Shown here in pieces: positions 4,960 to 35,576 of a DNA stretch of 35,697 bases. Position numbers and translations under genes: made by a program. Below the pieces are notes generated by a model, which was not told the DNA's origin, searched no databases, and worked only from the letters and a program-made list of their open reading frames with translations. This DNA is from Balneolales bacterium. GTDB lineage: Bacteria; Bacteroidota; Rhodothermia; Balneolales; HLUCCA01. How positions within the stretch are numbered: position 1 is the first letter of the stretch; each line of letters begins with the position of its first letter. The stretch covers positions 1 through 35,697 of the forward strand of contig JAIUMT010000001.1 of the NCBI GenBank assembly GCA_022565415.1, read 5' to 3'.

Positions 4960-4969
4960 AAATCACATT

Positions 4970-7606: not shown

Positions 7607-7608
7607 AA

Positions 7609-7857: not shown

Positions 7858-7861
7858 TGCG

Positions 7862-8365: not shown

Positions 8366-8369
8366 GGTC

Positions 8370-14140: not shown

Positions 14141-14892
14141 TCGTAGTACCCTTCTCCAATTACAGAAACTTGATGTGTGGTTACATTGCTGTTATTGGTC
14201 ACATACATGCTAATCGGGATGTTTCCGCCTATGTAGAATGGAATAAGCGCTGGCATGGCCATAAACTCATCGTTGAGCTGTTTCACGAACAGATCGCGCT
14301 TGATTTCATCGTTGTACACCTCAAGACTCACTTGCAGGTCATCATCACCAGTGGATCCAACGAAAAAGCGGTGAACGAGTATCGGTCGTGCCCGTGAAGT
14401 GAGGTTTACTAGCTTGAGTTGCTGCTGCGCTGGCACGTCTGCAAAACCATAGACGAATACCGGTTCGAGTATTTTGCGACCTACCTTTTGATTGAACTCA
14501 CGCCATTCCTCGAGTGTGACATGGTCATATCCGAGCAGTTGCACGTTTGCTTTCGCGGGATTGCTCCCGTCCAGATTGGTAAGCGTGATGGTTAGGAAAT
14601 TTCCACGTGCAATGATGAATGGGGCTAGCAACGATCTGAACCGGAATAGATCTTGCAAGGCAGAGATTTGTACGTTCGTAAAAATGTCACGCTCATTATT
14701 GAGCTTTGCACTGGCGAGAATGGTACCAGGGGTGTTCGTCCCAAAGGAAAGCCGGTTAAAGGCAAAATCCTGGCCATCATAGCCACGGAAATCACGGGAT
14801 ACGCTTTCTCCGGGTGGTATATCAAAAATCAGTGAAGGGGAGAATGGTGAGATTCGTTTGGAAGGACGGAATCGTTTAATCGCATTTGACAT
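14137..14892 (-). CDS. Beta-rich structural protein (251 aa); capsid-protein candidate
   Basis: Strand-like segments throughout (FLTITLTNLDG, NVQLLGYDHV, LQVSLEVYN, ISMYVTNNSNVTTHQVSVIGEGYYE). Adjacent to the 197-aa candidate. Confidence 0.4.
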   Translation of the reverse strand: MSNAIKRFRPSKRISPFSPSLIFDIPPGESVSRDFRGYDGQDFAFNRLSFGTNTPGTILASAKLNNERDIFTNVQISALQDLFRFRSLLAPFIIARGNFLTITLTNLDGSNPAKANVQLLGYDHVTLEEWREFNQKVGRKILEPVFVYGFADVPAQQQLKLVNLTSRARPILVHRFFVGSTGDDDLQVSLEVYNDEIKRDLFVKQLNDEFMAMPALIPFYIGGNIPISMYVTNNSNVTTHQVSVIGEGYYE

Positions 14893-14979: not shown

Positions 14980-15573
14980 TTACTCGGCTATGAAAAGCTG
15001 TGTAACCAAGTTGAGGCGACCATAACCGGCAGTATCCCAATGGGCTGCTGTCGGGAATACCGATGCATCAGCGAACTGGATAGTGACGTTAAACACCTGT
15101 CCGGCACCTACCTGAAATGGATCAGCAAAACGGATTACACCGTTGCTTCGCATCTCAATGGCTTCGTGCAGAACCTGTGCGTTCGATGCGCCTTCCGATG
15201 CAGTTGCATGGTAGGAAGTCGTCTTGAAGTTGAAGAAATCTCCCAGACGGCCCAGCAACATCTGCTTGTTGTCTTGATCCAGCTGGATTTTGACAGAAGC
15301 GTGCTTCAAGGCATTAATGATCTTCACCGGATCAATGTTGTCCGCGGTGCGGATAACCTGAAGAGTGGTGTCGATCGACATTCCCAAAATCGCAACATCC
15401 TTGTTACCAGGAAGCGGGTTGGTAACGTAGTTGTTGTCGGTGTCAACGCGGGATGCGTTGGCCGGGAAGAAATTTGGCCGTGAGTCATTCTGAACAACAG
15501 GTTTAGTGTCGTAAATGATGCGTAAGCGTTTGTCACGCGGCACGTTGAGTTTTTTGACTATTGGAGCGTTCAT
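14980..15573 (-). CDS. Beta-rich structural protein (197 aa); major-capsid-protein candidate
   Basis: AAGGAA Shine-Dalgarno. A strong downstream hairpin is a common mark of the most highly expressed late gene. Strand-rich sequence (FNVTIQFADASVF, RLNLVTQLFIAE). Confidence 0.4.
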   Translation of the reverse strand: MNAPIVKKLNVPRDKRLRIIYDTKPVVQNDSRPNFFPANASRVDTDNNYVTNPLPGNKDVAILGMSIDTTLQVIRTADNIDPVKIINALKHASVKIQLDQDNKQMLLGRLGDFFNFKTTSYHATASEGASNAQVLHEAIEMRSNGVIRFADPFQVGAGQVFNVTIQFADASVFPTAAHWDTAGYGRLNLVTQLFIAE

Positions 15574-15650: not shown

Positions 15651-16238
15651 TCAGTAGATAAATCCGTCGTCAGAATGTTCGTTTTCGTCCAGATACCCAC
15701 TGTCATCAATAAACTGTGAGTCGGCCAGCGGTTCTGGCGTCCAGTTATTGGCGGGGTTTAACGTTTCTGCCGGTGCAAGCCGAACTGTATTTGCAGTAGG
15801 CAAGTACCCAGCCGGTGAATTCATGGCGTCAGCAAGCTGGCCACTCATGGGTAAGAATGACAGGTTTGGCATTACTGTGCGTACACCAGCGCTCACGCCA
15901 GCTGCACCCGCGCCAATACCGATATACTTCACCAGGTTGGATTTGCCCATGCCGGTGAGTGCTACACCCGCTGCCAGGGGAATACCCACAGCTGCAATTT
16001 TTTGAATGCTAGATGGAATAAATCCACTTGCAAGTCGGGTGATTTGTGTTGCTGCTACCATCCCGCCTAGGATTCCGGCTGCTGGTATAAGAAGGTCTTT
16101 CGTACGCTTCGTGACAGACGGATTACGGCGGGTGGTTCGACGTTTCGTTGTTCGTTTCATTGTTTTTTTCTGTTTTGGTTCGTGCGGATTGGTAAGAATG
16201 GCCAATTCCGCAACCGGATTTTTTGCGTAAGCGATCAT
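15651..16238 (-). CDS. Membrane protein with Arg/Lys-rich N-terminus, glycine-zipper TM region and acidic C-terminus (195 aa)
   Basis: KKTMKRTTKRRTTRRNPSVTKRTKD, then AAGILGGMVAA / GIGAGAAGVSAG, then ...DDSGYLDENEHSDDGFIY. AGGTGA Shine-Dalgarno. Confidence 0.6.
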   Translation of the reverse strand: MIAYAKNPVAELAILTNPHEPKQKKTMKRTTKRRTTRRNPSVTKRTKDLLIPAAGILGGMVAATQITRLASGFIPSSIQKIAAVGIPLAAGVALTGMGKSNLVKYIGIGAGAAGVSAGVRTVMPNLSFLPMSGQLADAMNSPAGYLPTANTVRLAPAETLNPANNWTPEPLADSQFIDDSGYLDENEHSDDGFIY

Positions 16239-16301: not shown

Positions 16302-19300
16302 TTAGTTGAGTATGCCACGGCCATCTATCATTAGGTTGTCGATTACCAGGACATCATCGAGTTGATAGACTGGTCGTTTGTGTGCGTCGAAATCGTGCAC
16401 GTAGTAATTCACTTTGTTTTTCTGGTCTCCGGGTTGCATGATTTTATCTGAGGAGTACCAAATTTTGTGCGCATACCCGATGTTTTTCATCTGCGTGTCG
16501 GGTAGATCAACCTGATAATCATTCCCGTCGGCAGGGTAGTGCTTGAATTCTTCGTGCATTCGTTGTGCAGCAGGAGCGTGTACTGTTTTTTGTGCAGGAC
16601 GCACGCGGTTAGCTGGAACAATAAAGAGTTTGGATCCTTTTGCGTCGCTGAACATGTAATCACGGCCACTAAAGGCAGCGTTATCCGTGTGGAATTTGAC
16701 TGCTCTGCCCAGGTATGCCAGTTGCAGATTACCACCGGGATTTTTGCGAACACCCGATTTAAGCATTCCGGAAGAAACCCCCAGTTTGAAAGTTTGCTCT
16801 GCCCAACTCTTGCGGGACATGAATACAGAGCGGGTTTCAGCCATGAACCGATCGTCAAAGTACTGGCCAATTGCCGGGTCTGTAGCGGTTACTCGATCAG
16901 CTTTATCCAGTAAGGCTAAAACGGCCATAGCTGCCTCCGCTACTTCAAACTTTGTCTGCTCTTCGCGGGATTCAAAAGTTTTTACGCGCTGGCCATACAT
17001 TTCATATTTGTCAATGCGCGTTTTCCGGTTGACCGGATAGCTATTGAAGAAGCGTTCGACGAAATCAAAGAGTTTCTTTTCCAAAGCTTTGTAGTCGGTA
17101 TCGCTGCCATAATAAACCCGATCAAACAGGCGTCCAACGGCATACATCATCTGGCCGTCGCGTTGGTGGGAAATCGCAAGATTCCCCAGGGAAATACCGC
17201 TGTACCTGTAATCAAGATTAATCCCGCTTTCGTAGCCACCATCTTTCTTAGTAACATAGCCACTAGTCCACCCTCTAGGCGACAGATCATTCACCAGGCT
17301 TTTGAGCGTGCGTTGTCCATCGGCAGATACCGGTGGAAGCGACTCAATATTAGCGTATGCGTAGGTTGCTTGGCCACGGCTGTACTCGTCACGTTCTTGT
17401 TTTAATGCGACGATATTGGCCTTAAACGATTGATAATCGTCCGATAAATTGTTGTACATGGATACCGCGCGTTTAAGATCCCGCGATATCTCCAGGGCTT
17501 TTTGCTTCTCAGCATCATCAAGCAGCGCCATCATAATAGTCTCGTAATCCCATCCGCCACTTTCGGTGTCCTCAGACTCCATTTCAGTATCTTTGCCATA
17601 CCACAGCTCACGGATCCAGTTGGATTTTTTGTTGAGCAATGTGTAACGGTAGGCATCCAGTGACTTGCGAAGCAGATAGTAATGAATACGAACTTCTGCG
17701 TTTACGTTGCCTTGACGAACTCCACGGCCATTGCGCTGTGTGAGTTCGCTTGGTTTCCACGGCACGTCTAAGTGATGGATGTCGGTGCAGAACTTGTTTA
17801 GATCCATACCTTCACCCATAGAGGAAGTGTTCCCAATAATGACGCGAATTTCTCCGGCATTGAAGCGCTGCTGAATCTTGATCTTTTGCTCTGGTTTGGA
17901 GTTTTCTCCACCATTAATAATTGCTATCTCGTTTTTGGGAATACCCATTTCCACAAGAGTGTCACGAAGCAACCGGTGGTAGTTACGTCCTTTGGTGGTC
18001 GTAATAGGGTCGCAGAATATGAGCTGGCCATTTTTTGCGCCATCGGTAATACTACCGTCCTTGCCCTCAACATCGCGGGATTTCTTCCAGTAGTTGTCAA
18101 CCAGCGTTTTACACATCACACCGGCCTTGCTGTCCGGCTCGATTTTTCCCGTGTCCAGCACGATATCAGCGCTATCCCCCGGAGTGGGAATGTTTTCAAG
18201 TACATAAAATGCCGGGTCCACAGCAGCGCGTGATCCGGATCCAGCAACAAACAGATAGTTGTCTCGTGAATCTTCGCCCGTTCGCTTGTTTGGGATCATT
18301 AACGGCTTATCCGACTTAATCGCATCGACACGATCATTCAGATTCGTGATAATAGCCTGGTCACGTAATCCGGGTTCTAAATACTCCGGATTGTACTTCG
18401 CTACCGGGAGAATCCGGCGCACTTCCGGGAAATCAGAAGTATCAATAAACTCAACGTAACGGTTGAAAATACCGCGTAGAGTGTCCAGATTCTTATATCC
18501 GGTTACGACTAGTTTATCCTTGAAGTTCCCCAGCATATCGGCAGTTTGAACGCTTTCCACACGTGCATACTGATTGATAAAGCTATCCACATCATCAAGT
18601 TTGAGTTGCTCGATGTAATGCGGTGCAATCGCGGAAAGAAGAATGTAAGCCTCAAGTGGCGTGTTATTCGTTGGTGTAGCGGTAAGCAAAAACACATTAC
18701 GATTGCCCATTGCCTGATTGATGTAGTGGAATTTGGCAAAGGCTTCTTCAGCTCTATCTGAGCTCGTACCAACACCAATACCTAACTCCACGGCCATACC
18801 GGACAGGAACAGATTCTTGAAATTATGAGCTTCATCAACGATTAGTGCATCGACGCCTAGTTCATCAAAGTAGATAGAGTTCAACTTTGTAGATTCGAGA
18901 GCAACAGATACTTTCTGCTCCATGTTCATCAGTGAGACGAACATTTTTTTGAGAATCTTTTGTAATGGGTTTTTGAGCGTTACTTTCTTTCCGGATGCGG
19001 ATGCTTGCACTGCTGCTAACTCGGAATCGGTAATCTGAGCGCTAATCTTGTCTATTTCTGAGCGTATCTTCTGCAGGCGTAGGTTTTGATATTCTTCAAC
19101 CAACTCAGGTGAATTCGGGATAGCCTTAAAGCCTTCATGCGTTACGAAAATGGCGTCATAGTCATTTTGCTGAGCCATCGACAACATGAGTTCTTTGTTC
19201 TTCCTGTCGGTTTTCAGGTTCAGAACGTTCGCACCAGGGAAAGCATGTTGATATTCGTCAATCCATTTCTCGACTACCTTGCTGGGCACAACAAACATGG

Positions 19301-22300
19301 GCTTATTGGCCATACCACGTTCTTTCATCAGGCCAGCCAGCAGAATAGCGGACAATGTTTTTCCGGCACCAACACCATGCGCATTGACAGCAGCGCCAAC
19401 AAGTAGCGCCTTTTCAATCCACTTCTTTTGATGATCGCGCGGTGCGAATGGCTGACCATTTGTCCATACACTTCCCATATTTGCACACGAGAACGTCTCA
19501 CCAGTATAATTCGGCTCAATGGTCACGTTGTACGTATCGTTCCAGGCGTCAACAGCTTGCTGTCGAATTTCATCATCGGCTATTTCAACAATCCACTCGG
19601 TGAACCGCTTTGGAATAAGCCGTCTCATTTTGTTGTTGTTGAGAACCTGGTCTTCCTGTGCTTTCTGCTTTAACTGGTCGTCTGCTTCGGCTGGAACACG
19701 TTGTTTTGGGTAATCGGTGCCATTTAGGTAATATTCGATAATGGATGCATAATCACCTTTCCAACCCCATCCAGACATTTGTGCCAGACTCGTATTGTAC
19801 CGCGGGATTGCCCAGGCGCGACGTGTACCTCCCAACTCACCACCGGTGGCATACTTCACGTACGCTTTGGCCACTTCAACAGGCATATACGTATTCACAT
19901 CAGCTAAATCGAAGTTGATTTGCGAGGCGGTTTTGCGTGTCGGCATCATTTCGGTAATGGCCGTGATGTTTTTAGCAATCCCTGCTTGTTTGGCTAGATC
20001 CAGTTTCTCTTTGAGATTTCCAGAAATGTATTCCGGACGAATCAGGTAGGTGCCTGAAGACGGGTCAAGGAATGCCGACGGGTCACGCTCGGCCATTTCC
20101 TTGATTTTACCCGCGGAGAAGCCCGTAATTTTGGTAAGCACGTCAATGTCGCTACGCAGTCCGGTTTGACGGCAATACAGAATGATTTCAGAAAGTTTGT
20201 CTGTGCGTAGTTTTGGCGCAAATTCTGCGTTAAAAATGGTGTCACGCTCGACGATATCGCTGAATGTTATGGATCCTTTGCCACCAGGTCGTGCGACCGT
20301 ACGAAGCTGATTATAGTCCGGAGATTGGCCGAAATACTGTTCAATGATCTTAGATTTGTCAAACCACCCGTATTGCTTTATATGCTCGTTAATCGCCTTT
20401 TTCAGATCAGTACGGATCTCTGCTTTTTGTGATGTGCTGGCCAACTCTTTTTGCGCGGATATGAGCTGTTTTAGAATAAATAGGATAGCATTGGCGGAGG
20501 CAGCTTCGTCTGGGAGTTGTACTTTGTCTGAACTTTTGAGCTGGTCGGGCTGTGGGACTGCTGCCGGAACGCGTTCAAGCGCTTTAAACGGGAAGGTGTT
20601 GAGCACCGATTCGAGTTTATCTTCATCCATTGCACCACGAACAGCGATTTGGCTACCAAACTGACCAGCGCCAATTTCGAGTGTTCCCAGAATGCAGTCC
20701 GGGTTCTTTTTGTACCATGCATTCATGTACACACCAGAGCTTTCTACCTGCTCAGATGTGATGAATATGCGATCTTGATCGGATAGATCACGCTGGGTAT
20801 CGCGCTTTTGGAAAAACATGACATCGGTAGTAACCGTTGTGCTTGCATTGGCTTCAAAAGTCGAAGACGGCAACCGGTAGGCACCTAAGAAATGAGCCAT
20901 TCTGGCCATTGCTTCCCGCGCGGACGCATTTTTTTTATCCATGGTGCCGGTCGAAGAAATCACGGCAATCAATCCACCAGGACGCACCGTTTCCAGCATC
21001 TTCAATATGAAATGATCGTGAATCTTTGGCTTTAAATCGGCAAAGGTATCGTTACGGGAATAGCGGGAGTAATTGCCGAAAGGAGGGTTTCCGATAGCTG
21101 CATTGATGTACTGCTGATGTGCAGCGAAGTCGAAGCTCTTAATGTCAGCCTGTCGGACGTCGTCAGAAGGGTAGAGTGAGCTGGCTATTTGAACGGCTAA
21201 TGTATCGTAATCAAAAGCAAGAATATTCGTGTTATCGGGCTTGGTGCCGATAAAACTACCAACTCCGCATCCGGGTTCCAGTACCCATCCACCGTCAAAG
21301 CCTAAACGTATAAGCGCTGCCCACATGAATCGGGCAAGAGAATACCGGGTGTAATGTTGGTTTAAAACACCAACATCGACGGAAAGGAGTCCGCCTTGAC
21401 CGGTGTATAGCGACAGCGTTTTTAGCTCGTCTTTGGTGTAGGAACTATGTTTTTCTTTGAGAAGTGCAGCAGCTGCACGGTTCAACTCGATACGCTCTTT
21501 TCGAGAGAGCTGAATATCTGGAGTTGTCCTTAGCGAGTAGTTTTCTTTTTGGACGGCTGGCGTAGCAAATGATCGTGCATCATGTCGCTGGCCAGATCCG
21601 CTGGGTCGATCTCGAAGCGGGGCATGTTCGGATACGGATTTTCCTCCGGATTTTGGCGCGGTTCTTTTTTGGCTGCTTCCACTGCCTTGTTCGCGGTCTT
21701 GTGAAACTGATCGTAAAGTGGTTTGAGGTCTTCTTTTGCCATATATCTCCTGAAAATTGAGGTTGATTTCTTGACCTAAGTTAGAAAATTCTAGCTCAAT
21801 CGCATCTTTAAATTCATCTTTGATTTTTCCCGCTGCTATTGCTTTTGCATAGAGCGCTACCAGCGCGTCAAAACGTTGTTCACGTTGAGCTTGAAGGGAA
21901 GGGGCTGCTGCCTGGTTGTTACGATAGCTAGACTGTTCAACTTCACGATCGATCATAACTTGTTCGGAATAAAATGCGATAATTTCACTTCCTTCGATAT
22001 TGTTAGAATCCTGGGCAATTATGCCATCATAGCCTAGCTCTCGAAGTGCTGCGTTTATCACCTGAAAATCATTTTGTAAGACTTCGTTATAATCAAGGTC
22101 AATTTGACTTTCATCATCGTTTAGATATCCCTGACGTCGAAGTTGTCTGTCGATTTCCTTCTTAATTGCTATACGCCACGCTTTTGTGGCCCGAATTTTA
22201 CCTTCAATATTATGCAAGTCTTTCTCATAGACAGGCTTCTTAATTGAGGCATATACTTGTAGTACCTTATCCCCAAATTCTGAGGCATTTTCAGGGTTAT

Positions 22301-22472
22301 CGGTCAAATATATACCAGTACCCCAACCTGGTGCATCACCAACTACGAATTTGTCGAATCTTCTGTTTGTACCGTGATATAGCTTCAGCGGGTTGCCGTT
22401 TTTATCGACTACCTTGCTGCCCTTAAACCACTGTGAAAAGCGGGTTGCACTATGTGTTTTTACTCCAGTCAT
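16302..22472 (-). CDS. Polyvalent giant protein (2056 aa): N-terminal ART-like domain + N6-adenine DNA methyltransferase + SNF2/DEAD-like helicase + about 430-aa unknown C-terminal region
   Basis: N-terminus is FSQWFKGSKVVDKNGNPLKLYHGT...GIYLT...ASEFG. MTase motif I is EPGCGVGSFIG and motif IV is GNPPFGN. Helicase Walker A is GVGAGKT, DEAH box is IVDEAHNFKN, motif III is LLTATP and motif VI is QRNGRGVRQGN. Confidence 0.9.
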   Translation of the reverse strand: MTGVKTHSATRFSQWFKGSKVVDKNGNPLKLYHGTNRRFDKFVVGDAPGWGTGIYLTDNPENASEFGDKVLQVYASIKKPVYEKDLHNIEGKIRATKAWRIAIKKEIDRQLRRQGYLNDDESQIDLDYNEVLQNDFQVINAALRELGYDGIIAQDSNNIEGSEIIAFYSEQVMIDREVEQSSYRNNQAAAPSLQAQREQRFDALVALYAKAIAAGKIKDEFKDAIELEFSNLGQEINLNFQEIYGKRRPQTTLRSVSQDREQGSGSSQKRTAPKSGGKSVSEHAPLRDRPSGSGQRHDARSFATPAVQKENYSLRTTPDIQLSRKERIELNRAAAALLKEKHSSYTKDELKTLSLYTGQGGLLSVDVGVLNQHYTRYSLARFMWAALIRLGFDGGWVLEPGCGVGSFIGTKPDNTNILAFDYDTLAVQIASSLYPSDDVRQADIKSFDFAAHQQYINAAIGNPPFGNYSRYSRNDTFADLKPKIHDHFILKMLETVRPGGLIAVISSTGTMDKKNASAREAMARMAHFLGAYRLPSSTFEANASTTVTTDVMFFQKRDTQRDLSDQDRIFITSEQVESSGVYMNAWYKKNPDCILGTLEIGAGQFGSQIAVRGAMDEDKLESVLNTFPFKALERVPAAVPQPDQLKSSDKVQLPDEAASANAILFILKQLISAQKELASTSQKAEIRTDLKKAINEHIKQYGWFDKSKIIEQYFGQSPDYNQLRTVARPGGKGSITFSDIVERDTIFNAEFAPKLRTDKLSEIILYCRQTGLRSDIDVLTKITGFSAGKIKEMAERDPSAFLDPSSGTYLIRPEYISGNLKEKLDLAKQAGIAKNITAITEMMPTRKTASQINFDLADVNTYMPVEVAKAYVKYATGGELGGTRRAWAIPRYNTSLAQMSGWGWKGDYASIIEYYLNGTDYPKQRVPAEADDQLKQKAQEDQVLNNNKMRRLIPKRFTEWIVEIADDEIRQQAVDAWNDTYNVTIEPNYTGETFSCANMGSVWTNGQPFAPRDHQKKWIEKALLVGAAVNAHGVGAGKTLSAILLAGLMKERGMANKPMFVVPSKVVEKWIDEYQHAFPGANVLNLKTDRKNKELMLSMAQQNDYDAIFVTHEGFKAIPNSPELVEEYQNLRLQKIRSEIDKISAQITDSELAAVQASASGKKVTLKNPLQKILKKMFVSLMNMEQKVSVALESTKLNSIYFDELGVDALIVDEAHNFKNLFLSGMAVELGIGVGTSSDRAEEAFAKFHYINQAMGNRNVFLLTATPTNNTPLEAYILLSAIAPHYIEQLKLDDVDSFINQYARVESVQTADMLGNFKDKLVVTGYKNLDTLRGIFNRYVEFIDTSDFPEVRRILPVAKYNPEYLEPGLRDQAIITNLNDRVDAIKSDKPLMIPNKRTGEDSRDNYLFVAGSGSRAAVDPAFYVLENIPTPGDSADIVLDTGKIEPDSKAGVMCKTLVDNYWKKSRDVEGKDGSITDGAKNGQLIFCDPITTTKGRNYHRLLRDTLVEMGIPKNEIAIINGGENSKPEQKIKIQQRFNAGEIRVIIGNTSSMGEGMDLNKFCTDIHHLDVPWKPSELTQRNGRGVRQGNVNAEVRIHYYLLRKSLDAYRYTLLNKKSNWIRELWYGKDTEMESEDTESGGWDYETIMMALLDDAEKQKALEISRDLKRAVSMYNNLSDDYQSFKANIVALKQERDEYSRGQATYAYANIESLPPVSADGQRTLKSLVNDLSPRGWTSGYVTKKDGGYESGINLDYRYSGISLGNLAISHQRDGQMMYAVGRLFDRVYYGSDTDYKALEKKLFDFVERFFNSYPVNRKTRIDKYEMYGQRVKTFESREEQTKFEVAEAAMAVLALLDKADRVTATDPAIGQYFDDRFMAETRSVFMSRKSWAEQTFKLGVSSGMLKSGVRKNPGGNLQLAYLGRAVKFHTDNAAFSGRDYMFSDAKGSKLFIVPANRVRPAQKTVHAPAAQRMHEEFKHYPADGNDYQVDLPDTQMKNIGYAHKIWYSSDKIMQPGDQKNKVNYYVHDFDAHKRPVYQLDDVLVIDNLMIDGRGILN

Positions 22473-22473
22473 G

Positions 22474-23850
22474 TTAAGCGATTGCTTGAGATAAAAGGGT
22501 TTCCAACCTGTCCATGCGGGAATCGAATGTTTCTTTTTGCTTCGATTTTGGGCGTATTTTGCGCGGTTTTACGGTTCGCTTTGGTGCAGCATCTTTTAGC
22601 GTGTTGAACCGATCGTTGGCTTTGTCGCCATTGATATGCTCAAAGATAGGTTTGCCGTCCTGTCTGATTTGGTAGTTTCCACCGGTGTAAATAAGGTCGA
22701 TTTCACTTCCGGATTTCGTTTTGCTCGATCGCAACACGCTGCCATCTTTAATCTCTGCTTTTCGTGCATCTTCGACTTTAACAGTTGGTCTTGACTGTGT
22801 AGCTGGTTTGGTTTTCGTCGCTGGGGTGCTGGCCTTAACCGTTTTAGGTTTAGATACAGTCTTATCCCCTTTTTTGGCGTATTCCTTTTCTTGGCGACGA
22901 TATTCTTGAGCACCCAACACTTTGCGTGCATGTGCTTGATTTATGATTTCAATAACGGTAGAACCTGTTTCGGTGGACATCTTTTTCCAGGCCGACACAA
23001 AGGTGTCCGCGCAATGGGTATGAATTACCTTACCAGATTGAAGCATTTCCAAATACGATTTCTTGTTTTGACGCTTGTATCGGAAGGAAACCGGATTGCG
23101 ATCGACCGTACAGCTGTGCGCAAAGTCCACCATGTCGTTGAGGCGTTTAATCCCGCGGATTTTATGTCGCTTGGCTATGTCTGATAGTGGGATTTTGAAC
23201 GGTACGGGTACCGGGTTTTGGCGGGGTGATGCTTGTTTCTTTCGATCGCTGGTCTTGGATTTGCGTTGATCGAAATTTATTGGCATCTCCTGAGCATCGT
23301 GTGGTAGTCGATTTTTCTCTACATAGACAACACCATCGGCAACGCGTAACTCCACATCAACCATGTGTGCCAGCATGGATGAACCTTTAAACTTCCCGTC
23401 TTTGGTGGCATGGTTAACGACAATGAAGAAAATATCCTCTTGCTTACACCACTCATACAAATCAATTTGTTCTTTTTCGCGCAGATGCGCCATGTGCGCA
23501 GAATCTAACACCAGCACTTTAGCCTTGTGTTTAATCACGTCCTGCTTGAGGTGGTGTAATCCCAGATAGTCGCCAACAAGAAGATCTTTCACCCCGGCAC
23601 GCATCCGTTCGATTTTATCTTTCATGGTAGCGCCAGCACCTTCTTCACTCGAGCAGTACAGCACGGTTCCACGACGCTCCGATAGTCCTTTGGCCAACAT
23701 GATTGAAACCGTCGATTTTCCAGAGAATTTTACACCCCATATAAATACAGACGTATTGCTTTGGGCACGACCAATAATCTTCTCGAAGCCTGGAATATAG
23801 AATCCCGGGAAGTTTGTTTTTACCAGATCGGATGCGCGAACGACACTCAT
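22474..23850 (-). CDS. RecA/RadA(Sms)-like P-loop ATPase with long lysine-rich C-terminal region (458 aa)
   Basis: Walker A is WGVKFSGKST and Walker B is KVLVLDS. NHATKDGKFKGSSMLAHMVDVEL...EKNR parallels RadA (HVTKEG.IAGP..LEHMVD...KNRFG). The C-terminal half is rich in K/P/T (KPKTVKASTPATKTKPATQ, KRTVKPRKIRPKSKQKE). Confidence 0.6.
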   Translation of the reverse strand: MSVVRASDLVKTNFPGFYIPGFEKIIGRAQSNTSVFIWGVKFSGKSTVSIMLAKGLSERRGTVLYCSSEEGAGATMKDKIERMRAGVKDLLVGDYLGLHHLKQDVIKHKAKVLVLDSAHMAHLREKEQIDLYEWCKQEDIFFIVVNHATKDGKFKGSSMLAHMVDVELRVADGVVYVEKNRLPHDAQEMPINFDQRKSKTSDRKKQASPRQNPVPVPFKIPLSDIAKRHKIRGIKRLNDMVDFAHSCTVDRNPVSFRYKRQNKKSYLEMLQSGKVIHTHCADTFVSAWKKMSTETGSTVIEIINQAHARKVLGAQEYRRQEKEYAKKGDKTVSKPKTVKASTPATKTKPATQSRPTVKVEDARKAEIKDGSVLRSSKTKSGSEIDLIYTGGNYQIRQDGKPIFEHINGDKANDRFNTLKDAAPKRTVKPRKIRPKSKQKETFDSRMDRLETLLSQAIA

Positions 23851-24203
23851 TAGAATCTCCTCAGAATGATACCCGATACTAGGCCGCCAATAGCAATACC
23901 TAACGCAACGGGTGCGACTTGTTTTAATAATGATTTCGGCCCACTTTCACCGTCCCCCGATATCAAATCCACTACTTTCTGCGCATCAATGTGTTTGAAG
24001 TACTCATCAACCACACGTGCATTAGCTTGGTAGCTGTTTCGAAGCACTTGCGGATTTGGCGACAGGTCTTTGGCGATTATTGCCTCCGTAACAAAAAAAC
24101 CTCTGCGATCTCTGGTAAGCGAGTCTACACCACGCACAACCGTATCACGCCAATCGTTGATTTCTTCGAATTCAGCTTCTTGTATGTGAGAAAATTGGCT
24201 CAT
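23850..24203 (-). CDS. C-terminally anchored membrane protein (117 aa)
   Basis: Soluble acidic N-terminal domain. The C-terminal anchor is VAPVALGIAIGGLVSGIILRRF followed by the stop. Confidence 0.55.
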   Translation of the reverse strand: MSQFSHIQEAEFEEINDWRDTVVRGVDSLTRDRRGFFVTEAIIAKDLSPNPQVLRNSYQANARVVDEYFKHIDAQKVVDLISGDGESGPKSLLKQVAPVALGIAIGGLVSGIILRRF

Positions 24204-24862
24204 TTAGACAGGGCTTTTTTTAGGTCACGTTGAATTTGTGGCCACAATGGATAGGTGAAATAGATTCCAGCGCCAACTAGCGCCAGAATGGTGATATTTC
24301 GCGTTGTTTTGGCGACGCGTTCCATGGTTCCAGCCGGACCCACAACAGCGTTCGTAAGACGCTCTGATAGAGGTAATGTTGGTAATGTGATAACACCCGC
24401 GTTTACCAGTGCATTTTGACTGGTATCAAAAAGGAAGTCGGATGTTGCTGCAATTGGCTCTGCTTTGCCAGATTCAATGTCTTCTCTGGATGTGCGTTCT
24501 TTGAACACTTCCAGTCGAATCCAGTGATTTTTGTCTGGCCGGAAGGTTGAATCGAAAATGAGTCTAGCAATCCCAGAACAATTGGATAACTGTGAGGTCA
24601 CCACATTAGTAAATGCCCATATTTTGCCAGCATGATCATATCGGCCACGGGCTACCACTACTGCGTCCACGCATCGAACCGGACCACCAATAGCGAACCA
24701 ATTCTCGGGACGAAGCACAGCGAATCCAGCGCGTTCGGTCTGCACCTCAACATCGAGTGCGAACGGTGTTCCCGCGGGTGGAAGACCCGAATCCGGGTAT
24801 CGCTTCGTAATGCGAAGCTGCAAGCCCGTTTGATTAATGACGTCGCTTAAATAGTGGTTCAT
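24200..24862 (-). CDS. C-terminally anchored protein (220 aa) with N-terminal HYLSDV motif
   Basis: MNHYLSDVINQ... The anchor near the C-terminus is NITILALVGAGIYFTYPLW. ATGA overlaps on both sides. Confidence 0.6.
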   Translation of the reverse strand: MNHYLSDVINQTGLQLRITKRYPDSGLPPAGTPFALDVEVQTERAGFAVLRPENWFAIGGPVRCVDAVVVARGRYDHAGKIWAFTNVVTSQLSNCSGIARLIFDSTFRPDKNHWIRLEVFKERTSREDIESGKAEPIAATSDFLFDTSQNALVNAGVITLPTLPLSERLTNAVVGPAGTMERVAKTTRNITILALVGAGIYFTYPLWPQIQRDLKKALSK

Positions 24863-25245
24863 CGTCGTTTCCGTTTGCGTGAGATTAAAGCTACTGCTGC
24901 GCCAACCACCACCGCTCCCCCTACAAAGAGCCAGGTTTTATTGTGTGTGTGCCCTGTGGTGGCAGTGGTGGTTGTGGTCGTAACAGCTACATCGTTGTTT
25001 GTACCGGAATCTACTCGTGTTGGTGGTAGTGGGTTTACCGGAGTCAACACGTTGTCTCTGATACTATCTATGATGGTGCCAATTCGAGAGCTGTGCCCGG
25101 TATTAGAACCAGTATCAGTACCTTGATCTGGTATCAACCCATCATTTCTAGAACCGTTATCTGGTTGAAATGGATCTATGTAGTAGTCTAGTTCGCGCTG
25201 GTGACGAGATTGGCCTACATCGTTTAAATATCCTGATCCACGCAT
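24859..25245 (-). CDS. C-terminally anchored protein (128 aa) with N-terminal GSGYLND motif
   Basis: MRGSGYLNDVGQ..., a T-rich linker (VAVTTTTTTATTG), then the anchor WLFVGGAVVVGAAVALISRKRKRR followed by the stop. Confidence 0.6.
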   Translation of the reverse strand: MRGSGYLNDVGQSRHQRELDYYIDPFQPDNGSRNDGLIPDQGTDTGSNTGHSSRIGTIIDSIRDNVLTPVNPLPPTRVDSGTNNDVAVTTTTTTATTGHTHNKTWLFVGGAVVVGAAVALISRKRKRR

Positions 25246-25247
25246 GA

Positions 25248-25520
25248 TTACTTCTTGTTGTAGAGTTTATATGCGCCATAACCCAAAGCTACCAGTGCTA
25301 AAATGGTTAGGAGTCTGGGACTTACAACCGTTGCTGTAACCGGAGTCACAGGCACAAATCGTCCGTCAACGAGATTTTCATTACCCGTTAGCGTGTTCGG
25401 TGGGTAGGATACAGGTGGGTTTACGTGAACCGGATAGCCTGGTCCTGGTACGGGATAGCCTAGATCACCCAAAAACCCAATGTCTGATATATATCCGCTT
25501 TTTCCTGTTGTTCTCGTCAT
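25248..25520 (-). CDS. C-terminally anchored protein (90 aa) with N-terminal GKSGYISD motif and GYP-rich segment
   Basis: Start moved to the ATG at 25520 (AAGAGG Shine-Dalgarno 6-7 nt upstream). This removes the overlap with the upstream gene and aligns MTRTTGKSGYISDIGFLGDLGYP with MNRTSGKSGYLSDVSNLNFLGYP of 8573-8965. The anchor is LTILALVALGYGAYKLYNKK. Confidence 0.6.
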   Translation of the reverse strand: MTRTTGKSGYISDIGFLGDLGYPVPGPGYPVHVNPPVSYPPNTLTGNENLVDGRFVPVTPVTATVVSPRLLTILALVALGYGAYKLYNKK

Positions 25521-25524
25521 GGCA

Positions 25525-25851
25525 TTACCTCTTTTTCGTTTTAGCAAATTTGTACACACCGTAACCGGCTGCTGCAATCACGACGCCAGTCAGTGCAATC
25601 GTTGCAAATGATCGAGCTGGACGCGCTGTAACTTGGACTTCCGGCAATGTTCGTTGAACAGGCGTGTTTGGGTTAAAACTGATAGGCATTATGCCTGCGT
25701 TTGTAAATGGTGGTGTCCATGTCTGGTTACCACCTTGATTTACCGGCATGGTTGATACCAGGTTATCGATCACTGGATTTACGATGAGGTCACGCCACCA
25801 TTTGCTGTCATCAAGAAAACCGGATTGGCACGAATTACACTGCGTATTCAT
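25525..25851 (-). CDS. C-terminally anchored protein (108 aa) with N-terminal SGFLDD motif
   Basis: The ATG at 25851 is preferred over the GTG at 25884, which would overlap the upstream gene by 26 nt. MNTQCNSCQSGFLDDSKWW... The anchor is IALTGVVIAAAGYGVYKFAKTKKR. Confidence 0.55.
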   Translation of the reverse strand: MNTQCNSCQSGFLDDSKWWRDLIVNPVIDNLVSTMPVNQGGNQTWTPPFTNAGIMPISFNPNTPVQRTLPEVQVTARPARSFATIALTGVVIAAAGYGVYKFAKTKKR

Positions 25852-25858
25852 TGTTTGA

Positions 25859-27037
25859 TTATTTAAGTAAGAGGTAGGTTCCACCGGCAGCAGCTATTAC
25901 ACCGATACCGACGAGAAGTGGATTGATGCCAGCTCCAGTACTTAACATCGTCGACATATTTTCCGGTATTATTGCTGCTGCTGTGCTTTGTGGCTTATTT
26001 AGCTCCTCAGCGCGAGCAAATACCGCTTGCATGATTTCGGGCTTCGATTTTACATGAATTTCCCAATCGCCATTCCAGGGTAATTTCTCATTGAGTGCCT
26101 GAATGAGATAGGGATTAGCTTGTGCATACTGCAACATGGCATGTGCAGCTTCATGATTGTTGTAGTGAATGTAAACTTGTGGGCTCATTCCCATTTGTCG
26201 CAATCCACTTACAGCTGCATCGCGACTTGCGCGACGTTCTGCACGTCCTGCTGCACGGTTGGTGAAGATGCCGGTGAATCCACCAATTACAGCGCCAACC
26301 GCTGTACCTACACCCGGGAATAGTGCTGTGCCAATCGCAGCTCCCGTTGCTGATCCTGCTGCTACGTGATTCGTAGCATCATCTAAATAACCGGATTTAC
26401 CGGTCGGTGTTTGAGTTTCGTAATGATCTGACATGGTTTCTGCGTTACTGTGCACATCGGAAAGCATAACTTCCCAACGTTTGGTTATCTGTTCTGCAGG
26501 AATGCCAACTCCTGCTGATTTTGCTAGCGTAACGTCGAATGGGTACCAGCGGCCATTATGTTCAAATTCAAGATATATGTGTGAAAACTGTGTGGGATTG
26601 TTGTTTTTTTGACCAATCACCACCACACGAGAGGGAATACCCAGGCTCATCAACAATGATCCGGCCAGTATGGTCATATCATCGCAATCACCTGATTTCA
26701 GTTTAAGCGTTACTTCTGCGCCTTGCAGCCATTCGATATGATGTGGATCTCGAACGTATGCAATGGTGTGTTTCATCCAGTTATACACCGCGCTGGCCAC
26801 GTGGCCAAAATTTCGTCGATCAGGATGTCCGGTTCGCTTATCAACCGGAATCCCTTGTGTTATTTCCAGTGCTTTTTGTCGCACCTGAAAATTGCCTCTA
26901 CCATCGAGAATTAATTCGCGAATTTTATCAACTACACCAGCGAGTCCGGGGTAGCTTCCGCGAGATTTACGAACTTCTGAGGCCGTACGCTCCTCGTCTG
27001 TTCGGTTCCTCGTAAGTGTGAGGCTTGGGAGAGTCAT
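25859..27037 (-). CDS. Transglutaminase-like (papain-fold) cysteine protease-domain protein with glycine-zipper region and C-terminal anchor (392 aa)
   Basis: SGDCDDMTILAGSLLMSLGIPSRVVVIG...FSHIYLEFEHNGRWYPFDVT matches the Cys/His/Asp core G.C..fa....l.r.lGIP.R.v.G...H.w.e......W...D.t. An internal GKSGYLDD motif is followed by GSATGAAIGTALFPGVGTAVGAVIGGFTG and the terminal LLVGIGVIAAAGGTYLLLK. Confidence 0.75.
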   Translation of the reverse strand: MTLPSLTLTRNRTDEERTASEVRKSRGSYPGLAGVVDKIRELILDGRGNFQVRQKALEITQGIPVDKRTGHPDRRNFGHVASAVYNWMKHTIAYVRDPHHIEWLQGAEVTLKLKSGDCDDMTILAGSLLMSLGIPSRVVVIGQKNNNPTQFSHIYLEFEHNGRWYPFDVTLAKSAGVGIPAEQITKRWEVMLSDVHSNAETMSDHYETQTPTGKSGYLDDATNHVAAGSATGAAIGTALFPGVGTAVGAVIGGFTGIFTNRAAGRAERRASRDAAVSGLRQMGMSPQVYIHYNNHEAAHAMLQYAQANPYLIQALNEKLPWNGDWEIHVKSKPEIMQAVFARAEELNKPQSTAAAIIPENMSTMLSTGAGINPLLVGIGVIAAAGGTYLLLK

Positions 27038-27258
27038 GGTTTAGTAATTACATCAACTACTCTGCCAGTGGTGGCAACCGGGTTAAATCCAAATTCTTTG
27101 CCGATCATGGCCACTTGTTCTTTGGTCATGTCGCCAAAGGTGATCAGAATCGCGCATGGCTTATCACGCTGGGTTACCAGGCGAACAGCCGATTCTTGCA
27201 CAAGCTTTGCCGTTTGCTCATGCAGCTGGGTTATGCCGATAGTTTCAATTTTGCTCAT
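27034..27258 (-). CDS. Small hypothetical protein (74 aa), weak Phd/YefM-like N-terminal pattern
   Basis: IGITQLHEQTAKLVQESAVRLVTQRDKPCAILITF resembles the antitoxin N-terminal fold. It is ATGA-coupled to both neighbours and no toxin-like partner is present. Confidence 0.35.
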   Translation of the reverse strand: MSKIETIGITQLHEQTAKLVQESAVRLVTQRDKPCAILITFGDMTKEQVAMIGKEFGFNPVATTGRVVDVITKP

Positions 27259-28649
27259 ATCTTTTGCTTAAAGACTTCCAATACATTCACGATAAGTGCG
27301 CGTACTGGATCGGGTGGGTTGATTTGAAATGTGGAGAAAAGCATGTTGGTTGCTTCTTTTGCCGGCATGTACTTGAGCACGGTTTTAGCCTGGTTCAAAT
27401 TGGCTATGAGTGGCTCAATAACAAGGGCTACACGCTGCGGTGTTACCTTGCGTTCGATCGCTTGAGTAGCAACTTGTTCAGCGATCATCATCCATTCGCG
27501 GGCACCTGGTTGTACACCTTGCTGCGCTAAAATCGTCAACTGTTTGCCGACCATTTCAGCAATAGCGGAACTGTCCGGAGATGCTTTAGCTACCATTGCT
27601 GAAACAGCATTCTCAATGATGGTATTGGCAAAATTCTGAAATGCTTGTTGCATAATTTGATCAGGGGAGGGCTTTTGTTGTTGGTTTGTGCGCACTTCCA
27701 CGGCATCGCTCACATGAGCATCTGAAACAGGTTGAGGTGCATTGGCGTTGGCCATTACTTTTTCGATGAGAGGCATGAACTTATTTAATGAGTTCATCCA
27801 GGCGGGTGTTTCGTCGTCGGCATCCTCATCGTCATTAATGCCGTTTAGCTCATTTTTGAGCTGGGCTATCGCAAGTTCTTGCTTAACTGCAGAGAGCTCT
27901 GATCGTAAATTTGATATTTCGTTTGAATGCTGCTGGATAAGTGTCACCTTTTCATCGGCCAGGCGTTGGGTTAGATCAGCATTTCGTTGCGCAAGCTCAT
28001 TGTTTCGCTGCATGTGTGACTGTACATCAGCTTGAAGTAATTGCAAACGGTGATCGTAGTCACCGCGAATTTCTTCTTTAATTCTGGTCCGCAAGGTTTC
28101 AGCATCTAAAGCGGATAGAGAAGGAGAGGCATCTTTACTTTTTTTGCCATTTTCAGGCGAATCGATCGTAAAGCAAATTTCGATTTCAGCACCTTCTTCG
28201 TCCGTTGTACGAAGTAGGTATTCACCACCTTGACGCAGATCAGTTTTGGCAATTTTACTAAGCTGAGCTGGATTGTAACGCGGGATGGCCTTCATGTAGA
28301 TCGGTCGATCATCACTCAGACGCATTAGAATGCCATGAAATGGAAAATCGGATAGAATCTCCATTTCCGTTTTAGCAAACGTACTGTCAATTTTGGGGTT
28401 AGCTGGCCTACCTACCGGGTTGCGATATAATGGTTGATCCGCAGTAGCAACAGTTTGTTTTTGCCGTTCCATTTCTTCAAGAGCATCCTGACGACCTCGG
28501 TGATAATCACCGTTAGTTACGCTATCGTTTAGATAATTGACATCACGTCTATATTCCGCATCGGCTAAAATATCACTGTGATGTCCATTTAGATGGGTAT
28601 TGGGATCCATTGCGGTTGTTTGGTGATCAGGTGAGTAGGTGAGTATCAT
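27255..28649 (-). CDS. Coiled-coil protein (464 aa); scaffold/assembly-factor candidate, first gene of the late operon
   Basis: Central heptad-like region LQLLQADVQSHMQRNNELAQRNADLTQRLADEKVTLIQQHSNEISNLRSELSAVKQELAIAQLKNEL, an acidic linker DDEDADDE, and a helical C-terminal third. The start is uncertain (weak RBS). Confidence 0.45.
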   Translation of the reverse strand: MILTYSPDHQTTAMDPNTHLNGHHSDILADAEYRRDVNYLNDSVTNGDYHRGRQDALEEMERQKQTVATADQPLYRNPVGRPANPKIDSTFAKTEMEILSDFPFHGILMRLSDDRPIYMKAIPRYNPAQLSKIAKTDLRQGGEYLLRTTDEEGAEIEICFTIDSPENGKKSKDASPSLSALDAETLRTRIKEEIRGDYDHRLQLLQADVQSHMQRNNELAQRNADLTQRLADEKVTLIQQHSNEISNLRSELSAVKQELAIAQLKNELNGINDDEDADDETPAWMNSLNKFMPLIEKVMANANAPQPVSDAHVSDAVEVRTNQQQKPSPDQIMQQAFQNFANTIIENAVSAMVAKASPDSSAIAEMVGKQLTILAQQGVQPGAREWMMIAEQVATQAIERKVTPQRVALVIEPLIANLNQAKTVLKYMPAKEATNMLFSTFQINPPDPVRALIVNVLEVFKQKI

Positions 28650-34311: not shown

Positions 34312-34695
34312 TCAGTTAATGATCTTAATGAGTATGAATAAAATGATTGCGGATGCCGCGAATATGCTTGCACAAAAGGCAATGTATCGCTGGTCTTGCT
34401 TGATGTACCCGCCATCGTCGATCATGCCTCTGGTGGCTAGCTCATGAATTAGTTGATTGATGAAATCATGGTCTCGCTGATAAAGCGATTCTACACCATG
34501 ATAACTTTGCAGATATGCGAATAAGTAGTTGCGTAGTTCTATTGCGGTGCTACTCATACCGTGCTGGTACACGAAATCGGTCACTTCGTATATGATGTCC
34601 ATGTCCCTGGCATAAAGTGGGAGGGATGAATCGGCAGCGTTCTTACGATAGACTTCCTGAACAGTCGTGCAAATGAGTTCATGCATTGATTTCAT
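34312..34695 (-). CDS. Hypothetical protein with C-terminal TM anchor (127 aa)
   Basis: The ATG at 34695 forms an ATGA overlap with the upstream stop. The C-terminus is YIAFCASIFAASAIILFILIKIIN. Confidence 0.5.
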   Translation of the reverse strand: MKSMHELICTTVQEVYRKNAADSSLPLYARDMDIIYEVTDFVYQHGMSSTAIELRNYLFAYLQSYHGVESLYQRDHDFINQLIHELATRGMIDDGGYIKQDQRYIAFCASIFAASAIILFILIKIIN

Positions 34696-34940
34696 GCTGT
34701 TGGTACCCCGTATTTTTTGATGTGATCTATCCAGTTGCGGAACATCCTGGTAACCGTGTTGTAGTCGGCACATGTGGTGATGAATGTGGCTGTTTTTGCA
34801 GCAAACAAATCCTGTGGCGAGACGATATTAACCTGGATAACGGTCCCGGTATCTTGCTTTGATTTTACTTGAACAGTGGATTCGAATCCGCACTGTGAGG
34901 CTATTTCCTTGATCGTATTGGTGAAGTCTAAAACCAGCAT
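34692..34940 (-). CDS. Hypothetical protein (82 aa)
   Basis: The ATG at 34940 is preceded by a GGAGA Shine-Dalgarno. The longer ORF would overlap the upstream gene. Confidence 0.5.
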   Translation of the reverse strand: MLVLDFTNTIKEIASQCGFESTVQVKSKQDTGTVIQVNIVSPQDLFAAKTATFITTCADYNTVTRMFRNWIDHIKKYGVPTA

Positions 34941-35551: not shown

Positions 35552-35576
35552 CAAAAAAGTATGAGTATTCTGAAAT
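35533..35576 (+). repeat. Direct repeat GAGTATTCTGAAAT x2 (35533-35546 and 35563-35576), 30-bp spacing, in the switch region
   Basis: Read directly. The second copy ends 4 nt before the CI-like ATG (35581, equal to 11) and contains a possible -10 TATTCT. Confidence 0.8.

Follow-up and report, generated by a model that had tools for sequence, protein, structure and literature searches.

Tail-anchored proteins with a recurrent N-terminal peptide in the structural module of a probable internal-membrane phage from a Balneolales bacterium

SSIP-1, short for Salisaeta icosahedral phage 1, is an icosahedral phage that lacks a tail and has an internal membrane and two types of capsid protein (PMC6356626; PMC4958249). 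In HCIV-1 and HHIV-2, two archaeal viruses of the vertical single-beta-barrel type, VP13 has a C-terminal transmembrane (TM) segment and was proposed to form a pentameric docking raft under the pentons, while VP10, which likely also has a C-terminal TM segment, is a candidate for the protein beneath the capsomers (PMC6414509). Individual C-terminally anchored proteins are already known in related archaeal viruses, and also in PRD1, whose virion membrane contains many small phage-encoded proteins. Here we analyzed a stretch of 35,697 nucleotides (nt) from a Balneolales bacterium (contig JAIUMT010000001.1 of assembly GCA_022565415.1, positions 1 to 35,697), hereafter the window. Its minus strand carries a run of six consecutive genes (23850-27037) whose products end in a single hydrophobic segment, as do the products of two further genes (8370-8573 and 10034-10630). 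An earlier note on this DNA had suggested that these proteins form a dedicated membrane-protein set, and had assumed a virus.

The window proteins were compared by tblastn and blastp with all SSIP-1 proteins. Counterparts in conserved gene order were found for eight of them, namely gp33, gp34, gp40, gp43, gp45/46, gp47, gp48 and gp54. In the SSIP-1 record (NC_017983), gp34, 37, 40, 41, 43-48, 53 and 57 are labelled as structural. The first gene of the run (25859-27037) encodes a protein of 392 amino acids (aa) that is 28% identical to the structural protein gp34 and shares its tail. The packaging-type ATPase immediately downstream of the run (22474-23850, minus strand) is 31-32% identical to gp40 (phrog_6891, 2e-20), and three minus-strand genes of the capsid module (14980-15573, 14137-14892 and 13802-14140) matched gp45/46, gp47 and gp48 in blastp with E = 4e-20, 3e-12 and 1e-3, respectively. 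The lytic transglycosylase at 10034-10630 is 37% identical to gp54, which is itself TM-ended. This homology and synteny with a virus whose internal membrane is experimentally established lead us to read the six-gene run as the membrane-protein block of an SSIP-1-like structural module, so that the notion of a dedicated, co-encoded membrane-protein set is supported and that of a virus with membranes fits. Probably, the run genes encode the proteins of the internal membrane in a temperate phage of the SSIP-1 type, which would be icosahedral, tailless and lipid-containing and infect a Balneolales bacterium.

The tail type is also shared with SSIP-1. Tails of this kind are found in gp34, 36, 39, 41, 42, 50, 52, 53 and 54 (e.g. 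...LLGGGILLGGGYLIAQSSK and ...GIVTAAAGVGLAMYSKKGQ), the shared elements being a Gly-rich C-terminal helix, a Tyr and a K/Q/N end, and three of these tail-bearing proteins (gp34, gp41 and gp53) are annotated as structural. The two phages nevertheless differ: identities are only 23-37%, the small proteins of the window have no detectable sequence homologues in SSIP-1, and the SSIP-1 genome is larger (43.8 kb, against about 35.6 kb here). Most likely, the genes belong to a known class, the virion membrane proteins of SSIP-1-type internal-membrane phages, and the core finding is expected virus biology.

All eight open reading frames (ORFs) were present on the minus strand, with translations that agree with those of the earlier note; its starts at 25520 and 25851, which fall on internal ATGs within somewhat longer ORFs, are the plausible ones. 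A Kyte-Doolittle scan detected one strongly hydrophobic C-terminal segment in each of the eight proteins, followed by basic residues in 8/8. The hydrophobic core covers 18-22 residues and ends 1-8 residues before the stop in seven proteins, and 12 residues before it in 24200-24862. Within the run, the tails are GINPLLVGIGVIAAAGGTYLLL-K for 25859-27037 (aa 370-392, nt 25862-25930), SFATIALTGVVIAAAGYGVY-KFAKTKKR for 25525-25851 (nt 25528-25611), ...LLTILALVALGYGAY-KLYNKK for 25248-25520 (nt 25251-25334), TWLFVGGAVVVGAAVALIS-RKRKRR for 24859-25245 (nt 24862-24936), ITILALVGAGIYFTYPLWP-QIQRDLKKALSK for 24200-24862 and VAPVALGIAIGGLVSGIIL-RRF for 23850-24203 (nt 23853-23918). The two proteins encoded elsewhere end in AMTSAAALVGIGLLFFTL-NRIR (10034-10630, nt 10037-10102) and SYLVAGGVLLAAGVGYLIL-K (8370-8573, nt 8373-8432). 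AlphaFold2 modelled the tails as helices in the 392-aa protein (residues 373-391) and in the 220-aa product of 24200-24862 (residues 182-219). No N-terminal signal-like or hydrophobic segment was detected in any of the eight proteins (best 15-residue hydropathy in the first 40 residues at most 1.09). Only the 392-aa protein has an extra stretch, a weakly hydrophobic glycine zipper (aa 233-251) between its internal motif, described below, and its tail. The eight proteins therefore have the features of tail-anchored proteins, i.e. a single TM helix within about 30 residues of the C-terminus and no N-terminal signal or other anchor. The pattern of small residues followed by Gly-Tyr, proposed as a feature of several tails, was found in five of the eight and is missing from 10034-10630, 23850-24203 and 24859-25245.

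This bias towards the C-terminus holds for the window as a whole. A hydrophobic 15-mer occurs within the last 40 residues of 11 of the 48 window proteins, as compared to 1 of 48 for the first 40 residues; when residues were shuffled within each protein (500 shuffles), the mean was 2.7 and the maximum 10, versus the 11 observed. Single C-terminal anchors were more frequent in the structural module (8/25 proteins) than elsewhere (1/23; Fisher p = 0.024). In PRD1, on the contrary, most membrane proteins, including P11, P16, P18, P32 and P34, have N-terminal helices. Outside the structural module, in the early/regulatory region, a ninth tail-anchored ORF was observed (34312-34773; 153 aa, TM 130-149, end KIIN). 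Its tail is Ile/Phe-rich rather than Gly-rich, and it may be a superinfection-exclusion or lysis-control protein.

Tail-anchored proteins of the bacterial inner membrane offer a cellular parallel. ElaB and YqjD end with a Gly-rich helix followed by RR; no match to Pfam DUF883 was obtained among the scanned window proteins. TssL/SciP, DjlC, Flk and the ElaB/YqjD-type proteins likewise have a single C-terminal helix and no signal peptide, and are inserted post-translationally (PMC6794478; PMC3426401). They are, however, cellular, single and rare, whereas at least eight such proteins are clustered here in a single viral operon and share a tail consensus. In the literature on such phages, the original SSIP-1 account not being covered, we found no description of near-exclusive C-terminal anchoring, of a shared tail consensus or of the N-terminal motif, and no paper linking tail-anchored proteins to membrane-containing phages.

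The conservation of the tail was assessed in related loci. A megablast of 23.7 kb of the window against a phage collection gave no match, and IMG/VR close-relative scans with the ATPase or the 392-aa protein as single queries returned nothing; there, relatives were obtained via an alignment-based pattern. The related loci comprised contigs L002, L003 and L004, 26 IMG/VR contigs (mostly 33-37 kb), 80 metagenome contigs and 80 GTDB genome loci. The module layout recurs in well over 100 related viral contigs and prophages, in the order gp33-like gene, transglutaminase-like gene, three to seven tail-anchored genes, ATPase, a protein starting M..YAKNPAELV and capsid genes. Among 58 loci (viral or metagenome) with a length of 8 kb or more, 40 have at least three tail-anchored ORFs on the strand of the transglutaminase-like gene. 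Nearly all homologues of the 392-aa protein have a tail of helix plus K/R, including all of P0002-P0008, P0013, P0015, P0017 and P0020.

Statistics were computed on 226 unique tails from 111 loci. The core has a mean length of 20 residues, with 16% Gly and 16% Ala, and a mean grand average of hydropathy of 1.8. It is followed by K/R in 211 of the 226 tails, and the C-flank (mean 5.7 residues) contains on average 2.4 K/R and 0.3 D/E. Positions were then counted from the first polar residue after the core (position 0) in 41 near-clade and 176 far-clade tails. Near-clade tails showed Gly at 29-41% from -15 to -13, at 24% at -12 and at 34-41% at -9, -7 and -5. An aromatic residue occupies position -4 in 44% of near-clade tails (Tyr in 34%) and in 34% of far-clade tails (mostly Phe), and K/R is found at position 0 in 68% and 72%, respectively. 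The tail pattern is thus kept in homologues; its absence there would have refuted the earlier note. Distant clades retain the aromatic at -4 and the K/R without the Tyr; Gly-Tyr is specific to the near clade and does not hold as a universal signal. Within the family of the 220-aa protein, the tail Tyr (Y201) is nearly invariant (alignment A4).

Related prophages were observed in cultured Balneolales, among them Rhodohalobacter halophilus, Fodinibius sediminis DSM 21194, F. salsisoli, Gracilimonas tropica DSM 19535 and G. amylolytica, and these carry the same tail-anchored run. Others occur in metagenome-assembled genomes of Acidobacteriota, Nitrospirota, Proteobacteria and other groups. The lineage is widespread and experimentally accessible.

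A second shared element is a short peptide, which the earlier note located at the end opposite to the anchor. In the window proteome (11,502 residues), the pattern SG[YF][LI][SND][DE] was counted six times; chance would give 0.017 occurrences, and none of 2000 shuffles gave more than one. The proposed position was correct for four run proteins, in which the motif lies at residues 3-15: CQSGFLDD in 25525-25851 (nt 25801-25830), a tandem GKSGYISD-IGFLGD-LGYP in 25248-25520 (nt 25476-25505), MRGSGYLNDV in 24859-25245 (nt 25213-25242) and, as the variant HYLSD, MNHYLSDV in 24200-24862 (nt 24836-24862). In the 392-aa protein it is internal (GKSGYLDD, aa 213-220, nt 26372-26401), with aa 216 just past the catalytic domain, and it is absent from 8370-8573, from the lytic transglycosylase and from 23850-24203. 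The latter has no clear N-terminal motif here; its L003 orthologue has ...DDSNYLSD near the N-terminus. The motif also lies at the N-terminus of a soluble 130-aa protein encoded at 8573-8965 on the minus strand (GKSGYLSDV, nt 8921-8950, followed by NFLGYPGYPGYPGYP and a coiled coil, no TM), and is therefore not tied to a membrane anchor. This protein resembles the SSIP-1 structural protein gp37, whose N-terminus from an internal Met reads MGRFASDV; the motif is degenerate in SSIP-1 (MGGFSSDI, MGRFASDV, KAGFLDN). Finally, a 195-aa protein encoded at 15651-16238 on the minus strand, whose N-terminus (KKTMKRTTKRRTTRRNP) is strongly basic, whose hydrophobic middle is rich in Gly/Ala and whose C-terminus is acidic, carries three tandem motif-like copies, SQFIDD, SGYLDE and DGFIY, at its C-terminus (nt 15678-15725). 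It occupies the position of SSIP-1 structural gp44, and its orthologues in L002, L032, L033 and L038 start M..YAKNPAELV.

Codons differ between motif copies, indicating conservation at the protein level; a DNA-level repeat was dropped for this reason. L218 and D220 are invariant in eight near-clade transglutaminase-like proteins (32-91% identity), and in the 220-aa family the motif Leu (L5) hardly varies among 28 members; in many of these, the extreme N-terminus bears another copy, M.SGF[VI]H or M.YLG. Other forms in relatives include MKHSGFLSD, MKKSGFLHD, MHASGFLND, MDTSGYISE and MSSSYLQP. When a relaxed pattern was searched in the first 12-15 residues, it was enriched in tail-anchored ORFs relative to other ORFs (27/224 versus 24/809, p = 5e-7), and this was repeated on independent genome-derived loci (33/100 versus 44/677, p = 2e-12). 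Motif regions have a low predicted local distance difference test score (pLDDT) in the AlphaFold2 models of the 392-aa and 220-aa proteins, and the small proteins otherwise consist of Pro/Thr/Asn-rich linkers. A type IV prepilin-like leader (K-x-G|F...E) was considered and dropped, since the motif is not followed by a hydrophobic helix and its acidic position is inconsistent. Transglutaminase cross-linking on the motif Lys was dropped as well, since the Lys is not conserved. A multivalent docking peptide accounts better than a discarded propeptide for the independence of position, the tandem copies and the fact that the most N-terminal copy is conserved. On this pattern of occurrence, we read the motif as a putative docking peptide.

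The N-terminal parts of the anchored proteins are diverse. The 392-aa protein (25859-27037, minus strand) is a transglutaminase-like Cys-His-Asp hydrolase (Pfam Transglut_core, 2e-12), in which C118, H153 and D168 are invariant across 13 homologues. AlphaFold2 predicted its domain 30-195 with confidence, and Foldseek matched it to Cys proteases, LapG and the viral pseudomurein isopeptidases PeiW/PeiP. The 108-aa protein (25525-25851, minus strand) has a Pro/Asn/Thr-rich linker and belongs to no Pfam, PHROG or NCBIfam family. The linkers of the 90-aa (25248-25520) and 128-aa (24859-25245) proteins, both on the minus strand, are Pro-rich and disordered Thr/Asn/Asp-rich, respectively. The 117-aa protein (23850-24203, minus strand) closes the run. 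The 220-aa protein (24200-24862, minus strand) has a confidently predicted immunoglobulin (Ig)-like beta-sandwich (aa 9-121) and a TM segment (aa 190-208) that continues into a basic amphipathic helix. Its AlphaFold2 model has a pLDDT of 84.3, with generic Ig-like domains as best Foldseek matches. A word-indexed protein search retrieved two close relatives only; an exhaustive search of 1.84 billion sequences yielded 29 representative homologues. The pair Cys64/Cys95 in the Ig-like domain is invariant across 28 diverse homologues (alignment A4). Such a disulfide-like pair is odd in a protein without a signal peptide, and bears on topology.

The lytic transglycosylase (10034-10630, minus strand; 198 aa) has an SLT domain at aa 21-130 (Pfam SLT, 3e-10) and a TM segment at aa 177-194. 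PRD1 P7, of the virion lytic transglycosylase P7/P14, shows the same layout, with an SLT-type domain and a TM segment at aa 222-238 of 265. The window protein is thus of the P7 type by layout comparison: an SLT domain with a near-C-terminal helix, from the structural module of a phage that probably contains a membrane. Relatives also have a peptidoglycan-binding domain in tail-anchored proteins.

In the mechanism that we infer, as regards virion location, topology, insertion route and motif function, the proteins would be completed in the cytoplasm and inserted post-translationally via the tail, mostly unassisted or with help from the signal recognition particle or YidC. E. coli tail-anchored proteins whose helix is moderately hydrophobic do not depend on SecYEG or YidC for insertion, and also enter bare liposomes (PMC6794478). 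The elements of the tail would be a Gly/Ala-rich, moderately hydrophobic helix, an interfacial aromatic and a short K/R end. Through glycine-zipper-like faces of small residues, the viral helices might pack together and collect in a virus-specific membrane patch. The N-terminal parts would face the capsid, by analogy with cryo-electron microscopy and proteomics of HCIV-1 and HHIV-2 (PMC6414509), and the C-terminal K/R ends would lie on the genome-facing side. The SLT domain, the Cys-His-Asp hydrolase and, in relatives, the peptidoglycan-binding domain would then be placed at the outer surface of the vesicle, to penetrate the cell wall on entry. The [S/G]-[FY]-[LIV]-x-[DE] peptides, often tandem on disordered linkers, may dock to a repeated partner and so tether the membrane to the shell; this partner could be the underside of the capsomers, a vertex protein or the gp33-like assembly protein. 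VP13 and VP10, as small virion proteins with a C-terminal TM segment that were proposed to position capsid proteins on the vesicle, are the source of this functional model. HCIV-1 and HHIV-2 are, however, archaeal, sequence similarity to them would not be expected, two C-terminally anchored proteins per virus are discussed for them versus eight or more here, and no shared tail consensus or N-terminal motif was reported (PMC6414509). We tentatively suggest, as a possibility and no stronger, that virion proteins across this large and little-studied lineage of internal-membrane phages and prophages carry a two-part address code, made of a self-sorting Gly-zipper/aromatic/K-R tail with unassisted insertion and a short, often tandem peptide, which would set particle entry and membrane-shell coupling. 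The peptide might either plug into a repeated capsid or scaffold site, or be the recognition site of the co-anchored hydrolase. It is also present on soluble and polytopic proteins that would belong to the virion.

Several points weigh against this reading of the run. The putative virion location is built on 23-37% identity to SSIP-1 and on GenBank annotation. Tail features tend to be shared within a genome (Tyr, p about 0.002), a signal that base composition confounds and that carries little weight here. The gene 8370-8573 adjoins a lysis-type gene, being directly upstream of a 167-aa endolysin-like protein (7862-8365; weak PHROG endolysin match, E = 0.0025), so that a holin-type role is possible; it may serve lysis rather than the virion. 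The invariant Cys pair of the Ig-like domain suits an oxidising compartment. Finally, the charge bias contradicts the positive-inside rule for an N-in anchor, with 2.4 K/R in a C-flank of 5.7 residues and a nearly neutral 12-residue N-flank, implying that the basic ends cross the membrane or that the topology is reversed.

A reversed topology in the same virion membrane would resemble that of filamentous-phage coat proteins (Pf3, M13 g8p): the basic C-terminus would remain cytoplasmic and the N-terminal part be translocated, with K/R ends facing the capsid and N-terminal domains the lumen. The positive-inside rule favors it (the N-flank has 1.4 K/R and 1.2 D/E), the Cys pair would fit the periplasm, and tails such as ...YKFAKTKKR are similar to the M13 coat protein end, ...KLFKKFTSKAS. 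We nonetheless consider it rather improbable. The proteins lack a signal peptide and any hydrophobic segment at the N-terminus. Translocation would have to carry N-terminal parts of 100-370 residues, folded enzymes among them, across the membrane once synthesis has ended, and the cell-wall enzymes would sit inside the vesicle with the DNA. Moreover, the C-terminally anchored proteins proposed in HCIV-1 and HHIV-2 have their soluble parts on the capsid side (PMC6414509). A different alternative is that the proteins belong to the membrane of the infected cell, as holins, lysis regulators or superinfection-exclusion factors, rather than to the virion. Small single-pass proteins are typical of lysis cassettes, and the positions of 8370-8573, next to the endolysin-like gene, and of the tail-anchored ORF 34312-34773, in the early region, would agree with this. 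For the run it is very unlikely: the six genes lie inside the structural module, between the gp33-like gene and the packaging ATPase, in a position conserved across the lineage, the first of them encodes a homologue of an SSIP-1 protein annotated as structural, and enzymatic, Ig-like and peptidoglycan-binding N-terminal domains are not holin-like. Another reading concerns the motif only, and is compatible with tail anchoring: SG[YF]LxD could be a maturation cleavage site of the co-anchored hydrolase, in the manner of the adenovirus protease, allowing self-release at its own site and trimming of N- or C-terminal peptides elsewhere. The hydrolase has the invariant Cys118-His153-Asp168 and its nearest folds are cysteine proteases including LapG; the motif occurs N-terminally, internally and C-terminally in disordered segments of several virion-module proteins, and about 45 residues past the catalytic domain of the hydrolase itself. 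We regard cleavage as unlikely, however, as the motif starts at residue 3-5 in many orthologues (MKHSGFLSD, MKKSGFLHD, MNSGFVH), so that almost nothing would be removed, and as tandem copies with a conserved most N-terminal copy are better suited to multivalent docking. In addition, the PeiW/PeiP cell-wall isopeptidases of archaeal viruses, which share the fold, point to a role as entry lysin instead. AlphaFold2 placed the internal motif on the hydrolase domain without confidence (pLDDT 39-50), which decides little either way.

The earlier note had left open whether the tails are anchors or sorting signals comparable to bacterial C-terminal sorting domains. A single C-terminal helix without an N-terminal segment agrees with the former. 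As processed sorting signals, the tails would be cut by a dedicated sortase, exosortase or rhombosortase and the proteins moved to another anchor. LPXTG, PEP-CTERM and GlyGly-CTERM domains have the same layout, a hydrophobic helix plus basic cluster at the extreme C-terminus, and in NCBIfam the tail of 24859-25245 scored 19.8 bits on TIGR01167 (cut-off 15.9), the sole match above cut-off, beside sub-threshold matches to LPxTATN, PID-CTERM and GG_III-CTERM models. The TIGR01167 alignment, however, covers profile positions 5-33, i.e. the TM and basic part without the LPXTG. No conserved signature precedes the helix in the 41 near-clade and 176 far-clade tails, in contrast to true sorting domains, which come with a signature, a cognate enzyme and evidence of cleavage. 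Pfam scans detected no sortase, exosortase, archaeosortase or rhomboid, and hence no sorting enzyme alongside its substrates, among the 40 window proteins covered (of 48 curated), which include every protein of the structural module and the larger genes, all but eight early-region ORFs of 74-108 aa. The presence of the same tails in prophages of many unrelated phyla also argues against one host sorting system. Processing of this kind is thus extremely improbable, and the likeness to C-terminal sorting domains, judged from these alignments, appears to be one of layout only.

Other genes of the module can be compared with SSIP-1. At its head, a coiled-coil Gln-rich protein of 464 aa (27255-28649, minus strand) is a homologue of gp33, which is not annotated as structural; the gp33-like gene is the conserved first gene of the module in L002, L003 and L031-L034, and its product is a candidate assembly or scaffold factor. 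Between the ATPase and the capsid genes, a polyvalent protein of 2056 aa (16302-22472, minus strand) combines an ART-PolyVal ADP-ribosyltransferase, an N6 DNA methylase and an SNF2 helicase. It has a ...GRGILN C-terminal domain in common with the SSIP-1 structural protein gp43. As this counterpart is a virion protein, the polyvalent protein may be a co-injected anti-defence protein. In relatives the ATPase is sometimes fused to the polyvalent protein and ends in ...GRGILN. The domain, ...D[GE]RGILN (window 16302-16700), was observed in the polyvalent protein, in gp43 and in ATPases or ATPase fusions of relatives (L002 7288-10800; L032 4124-5809; L033 5926-8703; P0009-P0011), and in some transglutaminase-like homologues a variant of it, ...GGSYRVT..GIEG, replaces the TM tail. 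A GRGILN-type domain may thus be an alternative module for virion incorporation. In the 251-aa capsid-module protein, the last strand reads VSVIGEGYYE (14137-14170), with VSFLGETYRI in L033 (10217-10966) and VSFLAETYKV in L032 (7365-8123). This strand follows the pattern of the motif (hydrophobic, aliphatic, small, acidic), which may be a coincidence or a hint of strand mimicry. A GT4-family glycosyltransferase (8946-10037) lies inside the membrane/structural module, between the lytic transglycosylase and the motif-bearing 130-aa protein. The region 7304-8573 has the look of a lysis cassette, the endolysin-like protein being flanked by small single-pass membrane proteins (7304-7606, 7609-7935 and the 67-aa protein 8370-8573, minus strand).

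The two ends of the contig, when compared, were identical over 127 nt (1-127 and 35571-35697), indicating a complete, circular genome of about 35,570 bp (~35.6 kb). A long gene array extends on the minus strand between positions 28649 (approximately) and 7304. That the phage is temperate and has its own restriction-modification system is indicated by genes for a CI-like repressor (11-421), for a restriction-modification pair of the PstI/BsuBI type (696-3093) and for a tyrosine integrase (4712-6142). Shine-Dalgarno-like sequences are absent before the starts of the genes at 23850-27037 and 8370-10630, which would be consistent with a Bacteroidota-type host. A conjugative element or one of the type IV secretion system was considered for this DNA and dropped, as the capsid and ATPase homology to SSIP-1 speaks against it.

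Two standing questions on viruses with an internal membrane are how phage membrane proteins are selected into a virus-specific patch of the host membrane, and how the vesicle is coupled to the icosahedral shell. For both steps, this lineage offers a sequence logic that is simple and repeated, based on a tail and a short peptide that the proteins have in common. Relatives are integrated in cultured strains (such as Gracilimonas tropica DSM 19535, Fodinibius sediminis DSM 21194 and Rhodohalobacter halophilus), which makes both tail and peptide directly testable. The proteins are also an unusually dense natural collection of tail-anchored proteins in bacteria, and their basic C-termini are a challenge to the positive-inside rule. 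In annotation, many small ORFs labelled "hypothetical", and hence many unrecognised prophages, can be placed as membrane-containing phages. The tail-plus-motif architecture, found across a large and mostly unrecognised prophage lineage, is thus a testable lead on the sorting of membrane proteins and on membrane-capsid coupling.

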